Below the pieces are notes generated by a model. That model had not been told where the DNA came from. It saw only the letters and a program-made list of their open reading frames with translations, and made no database searches. This document shows, piece after piece, positions 31,210 through 38,089 of a DNA stretch of 64,000 nt; the first letter of the stretch is position 1, and each line of letters begins with the position of its first letter. A program made the translations under genes and the position numbers. Source of the stretch: Candidatus Saccharimonadales bacterium (GTDB lineage: Bacteria > Patescibacteriota > UBA1384 > 2-12-FULL-50-11); NCBI GenBank assembly GCA_035480235.1, contig DATIHX010000003.1:21514-85513 (forward strand), read 5' to 3'.

Positions 31210-32343
31210 TTAGTGGAGGGCTATCACAACTTCGTTTAAAAAGCGGGTGCCGGGGTCAGAGCGGTGATTTTGGCCGGTCCGTCGGTCGGCCTCTTTATGG
31301 GAAATCACGTTGAACGGTTCCTTGGCCCCCTTATTGCTGGCCAGGATTGTCACGTTGTCTTTGCTGATATTATATTTACCCATCAAGCACTGTACCAGGT
31401 TTATGTTAGCAGTTATTTGAGCCGGCGTTTCCCACTTGTTGGAATCGGAGCTCTCAAAATCGCCTTGGTTTTCAATGCTAATTGAGGTCGCGCCACTACC
31501 ATAGTCTTGGCTGGGCTGGTTATACATGGCAGCGCCGTGGGCAATTTTATTATCAGCCTCATATTGGACGACTTGGCCGGAGTGAAAAACTTCGTACTGA
31601 ACGTCGACGTCCCGGTCGTTGTTATTAAAGTAGTTATATTCGTTATCAATACTGTTCTCATCGGCAGTGTAGTGAAGAATAATCACCTTTGGTGTGCCGG
31701 TGCCGCGGCTTTGGTAGGAAGATTTGGTGAGTATCTTGGGAGTGACGTTCGGGCAAGTCCCGGTGGGTTGCCCGCCCCCGATTATCAAAGTCACATGGGG
31801 GTTTTTCCAGCCGGCTAGAACCTGGCAATCAACAGCTATATCGACATGGTTATAGCCGGCGCCTTGTTTTGACTGAGCGAACGTATCAACAAGCCGGAAT
31901 TCAATCGGTCCATCACTGTTGTACATTTTTTCGAGTTCCGGGATGCGAACGGTAGTGCCGTATGAGTACTGTTTAAAGATGGATTCGTCGATGGCGATGG
32001 AGACGTACGGCGCCTTCTTGGCGATGAAATCAGGCAGAACTTGGACTTTACTGCCCTTCATGTCTTGAGAGCCGCCACCGGTCGGGTCGCAATTCTGACC
32101 CTGCTCATCCTCTTTCCACTTCGGCACGTAAGCAGTGGCTAAGACGTCTGTGATGGTGGTGCCGCCGCTGCCAGTGGCTTTGGCAACGGGCCCGAAATGA
32201 AGCGTGCCAATCAGGATAAACGGCAACGTCAGTGAGAAGATGAAAATCAGCAGCGCCGCAGCGACGACAAAAATAGTCCAGGAGGCGCCCCTTCGCTTCC
32301 CAAGTTTTTTGGGGAACGGCAAGCTGGAAACGGGCAACGGCAT
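31210..32343 (-). CDS. Membrane-anchored peptidoglycan hydrolase: 3D/RlpA-like domain plus N-acetylmuramoyl-L-alanine amidase (Amidase_2)
   Basis: N-terminal TM helix. ...YGTTVRIPELE...FRLVDTF...HVDIAVD resembles a 3D/double-psi barrel. The C-terminal part has VIILHYTA...SISIENQG...ISHKEADRRTGQNHRSDPG. Confidence 0.65.
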   Translation of the reverse strand: MPLPVSSLPFPKKLGKRRGASWTIFVVAAALLIFIFSLTLPFILIGTLHFGPVAKATGSGGTTITDVLATAYVPKWKEDEQGQNCDPTGGGSQDMKGSKVQVLPDFIAKKAPYVSIAIDESIFKQYSYGTTVRIPELEKMYNSDGPIEFRLVDTFAQSKQGAGYNHVDIAVDCQVLAGWKNPHVTLIIGGGQPTGTCPNVTPKILTKSSYQSRGTGTPKVIILHYTADENSIDNEYNYFNNNDRDVDVQYEVFHSGQVVQYEADNKIAHGAAMYNQPSQDYGSGATSISIENQGDFESSDSNKWETPAQITANINLVQCLMGKYNISKDNVTILASNKGAKEPFNVISHKEADRRTGQNHRSDPGTRFLNEVVIALH

Positions 32344-36758: not shown

Positions 36759-38089
36759 TAGAGGTATTTACTCCGGATCATCATCACAGAATTATGGCCG
36801 AAACCGCCGTCTGATTCGGATCGGGTGTCGCCCAAATGGCTCACAAGGTTGCCGCTCGTCATTTGATGGCTGTTCGGACTTTTAGTATGGACTTGAACGC
36901 CGCTCGGCGAGGGGTTGTTGACAAAGAAGGTGTCGTCCGTTGGGTCATAGCCAACGATCACGAAGATATGTTTGGAATTGCTAAAAATGGCGCCAGCGCT
37001 GCCGTAGATAATAACTGGGTCACCACCAGCGAGGGATTTTTTAATTTGATCCAAGTTAGTGCTGCCCTTAATGCCTCGCGTCCAATCTTTGGTGCCGGTG
37101 TTGGCGTTAATATAGTCTGGCGTTACGCAGACGTTGGTTCCGCTCGCTTGCCCGAGCGTCGCTACCCGGTGGGCGCCACTGTCGAGCAGGCTCGGATCAA
37201 CTAAAGTCGGGTTATAGTAAAGCGTTACCATCAGGACGCTGGCGGCGCCGCAATCGTGAGCAACCGCTTCCTTAACCCCTGGCACGTTCAAATAACCGCC
37301 GTGGACGGCGCTGTAACCGAGCACTTCCGGGTAGGTGACGGCAAATTTTTGGAGAGCGGCTTCACTATCTTTGATCAGTTTTTGGCGGGTCGCCAGATCT
37401 GGCGTTTTCGGGATGGCGTCCATACCGCTAATGATGGCTGTTAAGTCGTTGCTGGCGGCGGTGGCTTTGGCGGCGTCGCTCGGGTAGACTTTGCTGATAA
37501 TCGCTTTGGCGGCGCTGAGGCGGTTCTTTTCGGCATCAACTATTTGTTGGACCAGTTGAGTATTGGCGATATTGTTACCGGTTAAGGCCGAAAGTTTGGT
37601 GACTTGTTGGCGCTCGCTGGCAGTGGTGGGGTGGATGGCCGGGCCGCCGCCGTTCAGGCGGCTGAAGGCGAAAATGGCCAGAACAATCGCGATAAGCAGA
37701 AATATCACCACAATGATGGCAATAACAAGCCAAACGATCGGGTTGGCAGCGATGAATCTCTCCACCTCAGCAGCCACTGCTTTAGCAACTTGGCCGGCAA
37801 TTTCCCCGCCCCGCTTGGCTATTTGACCAGCCGCTCGGACTTGACCGCGAGCGTCGGTCGCTTTCTCAACGGTGGTTGGTAGTGGTTTTGGTCCAACGCT
37901 TGGCCCACCGAACAATTTTTTCTGGGTGCCAGGAAGCTTAGCTTTAATTTCTTCAACTTTCTGCTGTCGGAGCTCGTCCAATTTCTGTTGGGCGGCTTGG
38001 TGAAGAGGGTCGTTCTGCTGTTGTTCCGGCCCCGGCTCAATCGGCGGCGGCGTGGCTTCCGGCAAAATCGGGTCGAGCAAATCGGCCAT
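36758..38089 (-). CDS. Bitopic membrane protein with a C-terminal papain-like (C39-like) cysteine peptidase domain
   Basis: Pro/Gln-rich N-terminus and a TM helix (IVWLVIAIIVVIFLLIAIVLAIFAF). Putative catalytic Cys in VAHDCGAASVLMV and His in SKHIFVIVGYD. Confidence 0.55.
   Translation of the reverse strand: MADLLDPILPEATPPPIEPGPEQQQNDPLHQAAQQKLDELRQQKVEEIKAKLPGTQKKLFGGPSVGPKPLPTTVEKATDARGQVRAAGQIAKRGGEIAGQVAKAVAAEVERFIAANPIVWLVIAIIVVIFLLIAIVLAIFAFSRLNGGGPAIHPTTASERQQVTKLSALTGNNIANTQLVQQIVDAEKNRLSAAKAIISKVYPSDAAKATAASNDLTAIISGMDAIPKTPDLATRQKLIKDSEAALQKFAVTYPEVLGYSAVHGGYLNVPGVKEAVAHDCGAASVLMVTLYYNPTLVDPSLLDSGAHRVATLGQASGTNVCVTPDYINANTGTKDWTRGIKGSTNLDQIKKSLAGGDPVIIYGSAGAIFSNSKHIFVIVGYDPTDDTFFVNNPSPSGVQVHTKSPNSHQMTSGNLVSHLGDTRSESDGGFGHNSVMMIRSKYL

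Follow-up and report, generated by a model that had tools for sequence, protein, structure and literature searches.

Why a single secretion operon should encode several kinds of cell wall-hydrolase module in consecutive genes, and which wall they would cut, are the questions raised by a type IV secretion system (T4SS) locus in a Candidatus Saccharimonadales (Patescibacteria) genome. The stretch of 64,000 nucleotides that was analysed, here called the window, contains a T4SS operon of nine minus-strand genes running from 45912 down to 30630. A first-pass annotation had described three different wall-hydrolase chemistries encoded back to back within it: a papain-like module (36758..38089), an M15-like motif (32343..36758) and a 3D/RlpA-like barrel combined with an Amidase_2 domain (31210..32343). 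The genes, their coordinates and the peptides quoted from them were all found in the window. That they belong to one secretion operon was borne out by the CD1110-type VirB4 and the PrgI-like protein encoded upstream and by TAATG stop/start overlaps, which couple virB4 to the gene for the papain-like protein, that gene to the giant gene that follows it, and the giant gene to the amidase gene. Judged from sequence alone, these three genes and the small gene downstream (30630..31208) probably form the module that remodels the wall for the Patescibacteria T4SS, equivalent to VirB1.

The gene after virB4 (slot 1; 36758..38089) encodes 443 residues, arranged as a cytoplasmic N-terminal tail of ~115 residues, a strong transmembrane (TM) helix at residues 121-139 (37673-37729), a helical linker of about 130 residues and a catalytic domain. 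Residues 279-393 (36911-37255) matched the Pfam hidden Markov model (HMM) of Peptidase_C39_2 (PF13529) with 36.4 bits against a cut-off of 24 (E 9.6e-9), and both C280 (in HDCGAAS) and H374 (in KHIFVIVGYD) were invariant in 9 homologues. The C39-like module that had been proposed behind a TM helix is confirmed by these comparisons as a predicted membrane-anchored, papain-like (clan CA) C39_2 cysteine peptidase. Behind a homologous TM helix and linker the C39_2 domain takes the place of NlpC/P60 or CHAP domains, and in other contexts it occurs fused with a Glucosaminidase or SLT_2 domain. Because of this replacement and these fusions, which mirror the glycosidase plus cysteine-peptidase hydrolases CwlT and TraG, a wall function is proposed for it, with peptidoglycan as the presumed substrate and stem peptides as the presumed site of cutting.

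The last of the three genes (slot 3; 31210..32343) encodes 377 residues, with a TM helix at residues 27-45 and an Amidase_2 domain at residues 216-365 (31249-31698) that scored 56.6 bits against PF01510 (cut-off 26). H224, E291, H349 and D363 were invariant in 16 homologues; following the known motifs of the family, H224, H349 and D363 would be the zinc ligands and E291 the catalytic Glu. A profile built from the homologues retrieved the solved amidases 6srt, AmiD (2bh7), XlyA (3hmb) and AmpDh2, with E-values down to 2.4e-6. The C-terminal domain is confirmed in this way as a predicted zinc amidase of the Amidase_2 (MurNAc-L-Ala amidase) family, as the first-pass annotation had it. Like AmiD, AmpD/AmpDh2, XlyA and T7 lysozyme, to whose family it is tied by HMM and by profile, this domain has the His/His/Asp ligands and the Glu. 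It differs from them in its membrane-anchored T4SS context, in a 15-residue insertion 'TILASNKGAKEPFNV' ahead of the second His in the subclade of the window, and in an Arg-for-Lys replacement weighed below.

The supposed 3D/RlpA-like barrel of the same protein (residues ~66-190; 31774-32148) was common only to its closest homologue, P0020, and in most of the remaining homologues a glycosidase domain of 'GESSF' type stands in its place. No Pfam match was found for the domain of the window or of P0020 at E<=10, and none in the PDB (phmmer) or in phages (tblastn). When aligned with E. coli MltA by hhalign, its best local match, a weak one, fell on the MltA 3D domain (62 columns, 35% identity, pairwise E 0.026, probability 1.9%). 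In that same weak match D119, D153 and D168, all three kept in P0020, were placed on the three Asp of MltA, including that of 'HFDIY', which we take to be the catalytic D308 of mature MltA. A 3D/MltA-like domain is thus a plausible assignment, and if it is correct, one glycan-cleaving domain would have been swapped for another in slot 3.

Between these two enzymes lies the giant exported protein (32343..36758; 1471 residues), which comprises a signal peptide, a LAS-like N-terminal domain (36084-36473), a long 'LGLP'-repeat region and a conserved C-terminal domain. Its sequence is 100% identical to an NCBI entry for Candidatus Saccharimonadales. The motif that had been called M15-like, S179-P-H-N-S-G-Q-A-V-D188 (36195-36224), occurs once in the six frames of the window, and residues 96-345 around it form the best-conserved part of the protein (mean column identity 63%, compared with 49% over the full length). 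A profile search with the LAS-like domain against 1.84 billion representatives returned 196 proteins, nearly all of 1400-3200 residues, with no small stand-alone peptidase in the top 150 of the 196 matches. Conservation was counted on 143 extracted domain copies (hmmsearch and hmmalign; totals differ from position to position). Across these the motif proved real, at ~85-94% per position (S 119/135, H 123/135, G 117/137, A 128/138, D 130/139), while outside it R126 was present in 83 of 86 copies and Q223 in all 137, the latter as part of an invariant pair W222-Q223. Such retention of R126 and of the motif residues S, H, G, A and D, at ~85-97% across ~140 very divergent copies, suggests a working metal or ligand site.

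Among the LAS or clan MD proteins (VanX, DdpX, VanY, MepK and the Sonic hedgehog N-domain), the pattern SxHxxGxAxD aligns with the His/Asp zinc ligands of DdpX and MepK and with the Sonic hedgehog N-domain, and the conserved Arg upstream is a further likeness to the group. With E. coli DdpX and MepK, hhalign aligned exactly the zinc-binding motif, over only 14-18 columns. In 12 of 38 members of the giant family the top sub-threshold Pfam matches were VanY (6), Peptidase_M15_4 (4) and DUF5715 (2). A profile search of the PDB with the domain gave noise and matches at E~1.5 to the Sonic hedgehog N-domain on the same motif; with the whole giant protein, the PDB profile search found nothing. AlphaFold2 modelling gave a predicted local distance difference test score (pLDDT) of 47.6, which was unusable, from 17 sequences and of 74.7 from an alignment of 38. 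In our reading a LAS-type domain has probably diverged here, keeping a His/Asp site that Gln223 may complete; by comparison with 'FVHID' of MepK, this Gln may stand at the place of the third His. Peptidoglycan would be the substrate of the domain.

At the other end of the giant protein, some 150 residues (32343-32800) form a strongly conserved domain after moderate hydrophobic segments at 1255-1273 and 1302-1320. Its consensus ends in 'KTTDWVHVxFGG', in which the window protein has Tyr for His, and it matches no known family. A third LAS ligand supplied by this C-terminal 'TDWVHV' was considered and dropped: the His is Tyr in the window and is not conserved, and nothing joins the two ends of the protein.

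The operon was compared with 13 related loci from metagenome-assembled genomes of Berkelbacteria, Saccharibacteria and other Patescibacteria, gene order being judged where a contig reaches far enough. The shared order is PrgI, VirB4, TM-anchored peptidase, giant protein, TM-anchored hydrolase, small TM protein, recF, dnaN and dnaA; the more distant giant-family members P0066 and P0060 adjoin DciA-recF-dnaN, and P0060 adjoins dnaA too. While this order is fixed, the catalytic domains at the two slots are exchanged freely and fast. The slot 1 proteins all share a homologous N-terminal tail, TM helix and linker; their catalytic domain is NlpC/P60 or CHAP in 6 of 10 scanned loci, belongs to no detectable family in the other 4, and is C39_2 in the window and in its nearer relatives. 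In slot 3, SLT was found in L002, L007 and L011, Glucosaminidase only in L006, M23 in L003, C39_2 in L004, L005, L008 (plus a weak SLT_2 match) and L009, and Amidase_2 in L013 and the window. The VirB4 proteins of L005 and L006 are 90% identical, yet slot 3 carries C39_2 in the former and only Glucosaminidase in the latter; L003 and L005, with VirB4 80% identical, differ in the same way (M23 against C39_2). Since related loci carry exchanged modules at both slots, three or four hydrolase-type modules per operon are normal for the clade.

The small TM-anchored protein downstream (30630..31208; 192 residues, TM helix at residues 7-25) had been suggested to be an inhibitor or immunity factor. A gene of similar size stands at the same position in nine loci, its products showing 14-22% identity to the window protein and no invariant column, and 5 of the 9 pass BLAST at E<=1e-5. 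Some members gave weak matches to the Ig-like/fn3_3, CarboxypepD_reg and Big_5 families, and a beta-sandwich ectodomain is probable. In the cultured Saccharibacterium Southlakia epibionticum this position is occupied by SEML1_0005, which encodes an essential exported PEGA-domain protein (PMC10633639) that the window protein resembles. The homologues come after C39_2, Amidase_2, M23 and glycosidase-only hydrolases alike, and because the protein is conserved whatever type of hydrolase precedes it, an amidase-specific immunity or inhibitor role was rejected; its distribution argues for a conserved accessory component of the operon. Between this gene and recF a 94-residue open reading frame (ORF) on the plus strand (30359-30643) is kept in six related loci. 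The gene in its position is called DciA (PF05258) in L017 and L018, and the window copy has no Pfam match.

The window module has in common with PrgK, TraG and CwlT an N-terminal membrane anchor, two or three types of wall-hydrolase domain and a place beside virB4. CwlT of ICEBs1 is a VirB1-like hydrolase that is likened to PrgK and TraG in its anchor, its multiple hydrolase domains and its virB4 neighbourhood, the domains of the three being drawn from LytM, muramidase/SLT, and CHAP or NlpC/P60. The first-pass annotation had held that T4SSs normally need one lytic enzyme, which fails for monoderm systems, where VirB1-like proteins are multidomain (PMC12857230; PMC12102498). The extracellular part of PrgK of pCF10 comprises LytM, a muramidase-type middle domain and CHAP; of these three only the middle one is clearly active, the other two appearing regulatory, and TraG of pIP501 combines SLT and CHAP (PMC12857230, FEMS 2025 review). 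In PrgK, TraG and CwlT the domains are fused in one protein, with neither Amidase_2 nor C39_2 and with no giant partner, whereas in the window the modules are spread over three genes; the Amidase_2 of the window is not among the CHAP, SLT, MUR and LytM types shown for VirB1-like hydrolases in PMC12857230. Those systems are moreover conjugative, with relaxase and coupling protein, neither of which was found among the window ORFs scanned, a scan that covered only part of them.

The closest parallel is found in S. epibionticum ML1, whose T4SS locus contains SEML1_0004-0011 and 0013, scored essential, and SEML1_0012, which was not (PMC10633639, Wang et al. 2023). The two loci are alike in their small exported proteins on the opposite strand after dnaA-dnaN-recF, a multi-domain hydrolase, a large LAS-domain protein, VirB4, PrgI, VirB6-like proteins and pilin genes nearby, and the S. 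epibionticum locus too has no relaxase. Of the two genes that follow virB4 there, SEML1_0006 (643 residues) bears two lysozyme-like domains and a cysteine proteinase domain, and SEML1_0007 (1113 residues) an ECOD Hedgehog/DD-peptidase domain at 951-1105; both are essential (PMC10633639). Glycosidase and cysteine-proteinase domains are thus joined in one S. epibionticum protein, whereas in the window the cysteine peptidase has its own gene ahead of the giant protein and the last hydrolase carries Amidase_2. The LAS domain is C-terminal in the 1113-residue protein and the LAS-like motif N-terminal in the giant protein of the window, the two being likened by position and domain only. For a cultured Saccharibacterium, then, it is already on record that virB4 is accompanied by a cysteine peptidase, a glycosidase and a LAS-type domain, and stacking itself is not new. 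The window differs in the splitting of the modules over three genes, the use of C39_2 as cysteine peptidase and the presence of Amidase_2. Neither the exchange of domains at fixed slots nor a LAS-like His/Asp/Gln domain in giant proteins was found in the literature searched.

In the reading that we consider probable, two membrane-anchored enzymes would stand on either side of the exported giant protein, which carries a His/Asp site of LAS type, and the module would do the job of the VirB1, PrgK, TraG and CwlT hydrolases. Cuts in the glycan strand (the putative 3D-like activity), at the MurNAc-L-Ala bond (Amidase_2) and in the stem peptide (the putative C39_2 activity), presumably made locally at the T4SS, would open the wall so that the channel and a VirB2-like pilus could cross a wall of Gram-positive type. 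The T4SS context, the shared synteny and the intact residue sets C280/H374 and H224/E291/H349/D363 speak for such a module. Several observations weigh on the other side. We know of no established peptidoglycan substrate for the C39_2 family; the 3D (PF06725) call comes from one weak alignment; the Lys of the KxD/KxC motif, two residues before the last ligand of Amidase_2, is replaced by an invariant Arg361 (RSDPG), which is probably a conservative change; and the essentiality seen in S. epibionticum would fit T4SS assembly or a general autolysin alike. The remaining points concern the giant protein, which matched no Pfam family, M15-type included, even at E<=10. Downstream of the motif no third His with a neighbouring catalytic Glu, Asp or His (ExxH, DxxH or HxH) was conserved in the 143 copies, and Foldseek found no structural match for the model of the LAS-like domain.

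On these last points rests the alternative that fares best, to which we give somewhat less than an even chance, namely that the stack is partial: the LAS-like domain would have no catalytic function and would bind peptidoglycan or peptides, or regulate; the giant protein would be a structural stalk or an adhesin, and metallopeptidase chemistry would be absent. The missing third His and the invariant W222-Q223 in its stead are what it would predict; at the positions where some members read 'ExRH', a His occurs in just 8 and 19 of the 137 sequences. The likeness to DdpX and MepK is confined to the columns of the motif, and the rest of the protein, more than 1000 residues long, is repeat-like and without enzyme signature. 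It accounts less well for the retention of the motif residues and R126 in such divergent copies and for the VanY, Peptidase_M15_4 and DUF5715 matches that come out on top below threshold. What stands of the M15-like claim is the motif of the first two zinc ligands in this predicted domain; M15 membership does not, there being no HMM match, no third ligand and no catalytic acid. The HMM search likewise placed C39_2 and Amidase_2 above their cut-offs and left M15 and 3D without a match, and catalytic residues were intact on alignment in the C39_2 and Amidase_2 domains.

The first-pass annotation had taken stacked activities as a sign that a foreign wall is the target. Stacking is, however, the rule in PrgK, TraG and S. 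epibionticum, and because it is usual in monoderm T4SSs and in that of S. epibionticum, it is by itself no pointer to a foreign wall. A role of the hydrolases, with or without the giant protein, in breaching host peptidoglycan at the contact between epibiont and host, with domain swaps tracking the wall chemotypes of hosts, is on present evidence unlikely, although compatible with an own-wall module rather than exclusive of it. The organism is probably an epibiont, its group consisting of obligate epibionts with an essential T4SS of unexplained role (PMC11665869). The lack of relaxase and coupling protein among the ORFs scanned, the fast change of catalytic domains at two fixed slots, which resembles phage endolysin evolution, and the long linker that separates TM helix and catalytic domain in the C39 protein would all suit an outward target. 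Both enzymes are N-terminally TM-anchored, however, as are the self-wall hydrolases PrgK and TraG, and all three proteins are anchored in or exported from the cell's own membrane. Conjugative T4SSs that cross only the donor wall have multi-domain hydrolases as well, and domain turnover could equally follow the lineage's own wall, for which the window encodes FemAB and a Mur ligase. The wall cut may be the cell's own, the host's or both, and the anchors would favour the former.

More doubtful still is a specialized version in which the giant protein would be a constant core, its diverged LAS fold with a His-Asp-Gln site recognizing or cutting a host-wall peptide, while the domains in the flanking slots adapt to host chemotype as phage endolysins do. 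The giant family comprises about 200 protein clusters of 1400-3200 residues, all members checked lying at the origin-proximal T4SS locus, and the domain types seen across the two flanking slots are NlpC/P60, CHAP, C39_2, SLT, Glucosaminidase, M23 and Amidase_2.

C39 peptidases proper process exported peptides, and the slot 1 protein might by analogy be a processing peptidase of the double-glycine type for T4SS substrates or pilins rather than a wall hydrolase. A weak PDB match to the double-glycine peptidase PCAT at the catalytic Cys (E 0.93) and the VirB2-like pilins encoded in the window are in its favour. We regard it as quite improbable, given that relatives have NlpC/P60 or CHAP wall peptidases in the same slot, that fusions of C39_2 with glycosidase domains occur among them, that the window protein has no match to Peptidase C39 proper (PF03412) and that no ABC transporter partner is encoded in the operon. 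Least probable of all is that the hydrolases are general autolysins for growth or division lying beside the T4SS by chance in a reduced genome, as the essential S. epibionticum counterparts, the small genome and the few other hydrolases seen in the window might suggest, for their genes are translationally coupled to virB4, are never separated from virB4 and the giant gene in the related loci that span the region, and stand where VirB1-like genes stand in Gram-positive T4SS operons.

The rest of the operon agrees with the preferred reading of a T4SS wall-remodelling module in its setting. VirB4 (38089..40704) was assigned to the CD1110 (Gram-positive/MPF-FATA) type by NCBIfam conju_CD1110 (355.5 bits, cut-off 325) and a Pfam TraG P-loop match, and is 59-77% identical to the VirB4 of 11 related loci; homologues align from about M10, so that its start may be 40677. 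The PrgI/VirB3-like two-TM protein (40664..41110; Pfam PrgI 43 bits, cut-off 27, E 6.8e-11) was listed as ORF 40664-41269, and alignment of homologues from M54 makes 41110 the probable start. Upstream lie a 243-residue soluble protein (41157..41888; no HMM match, weak homologue in L013) and an 800-residue polytopic membrane protein with six hydrophobic helices (41885..44287), likewise without HMM match, which stands upstream of PrgI/VirB4 in 8 related loci and would by position and topology be VirB6-like. The first gene of the cluster (44284..45912) encodes a 542-residue protein with one N-terminal TM helix (residues 28-46) and no Pfam or NCBIfam match, its C-terminal part being kept in L006, L010 and L013.

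The operon is flanked by yidC, dnaA, dnaN and recF on one side and by LeuRS, TsaD, FemAB, Mur ligase and PolA genes on the other. With these housekeeping flanks and a synteny kept across 13 genomes, an origin in an integrative and conjugative element or plasmid was rejected in favour of a chromosomal T4SS; by these comparisons the locus is a predicted conserved, origin-proximal, Gram-positive-type T4SS operon of Patescibacteria, with CD1110-type VirB4 and PrgI/VirB3, adjoining dnaA. It agrees with the description of the Patescibacteria T4SS as MPF-FATA-like, near dnaA and usually without relaxase (Quinonero-Coronel et al. 2025, PMC12102498). The operon reads towards recF-dnaN-dnaA (dnaA at 26418-27830, plus strand), as in S. 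epibionticum and all related loci reaching recF, and would be head-on to replication if oriC lies at dnaA. Plus-strand GC skew is strongly positive over 32001-40000 (+0.12 to +0.16), and GC content is 54-57% over the VirB4, C39 and giant genes and about 50% in the amidase and small genes.

Two tandem T4SS_pilin (VirB2-like) genes on the minus strand (18237-18788 and 18785-19756) lie ~12 kb beyond dnaA from the virB4 operon, and pilin arrays are reported for Saccharimonadia; the 456-residue ORF near them (20079-21449) has no known domain. A PilB-like T2SSE ATPase of type IV pilus kind (16272-17795, plus strand) is syntenic also in L018, and a 387-residue protein (13044-14207, minus strand) ends in a Dockerin_1 domain. 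Positions 1215-11022 hold a surface-polysaccharide cluster (epimerase, two Wzy_C O-antigen-ligase-like genes, GT1/GT2 glycosyltransferases and a Polysacc_synt/MurJ-like flippase). On the plus strand at 51486-53788 a FemAB-family gene is followed by the Mur ligase gene, which suggests an interpeptide bridge in the peptidoglycan of the organism itself and bears on the bonds that its hydrolases might cut.

Epibiotic growth of Saccharibacteria requires the T4SS, a system whose role has been called completely unknown (PMC11665869). Among its soluble parts the hydrolases are the most tractable, and their specificity for sacculi would offer a direct clue as to whether the machine crosses only the wall of its own cell or that of the host too.

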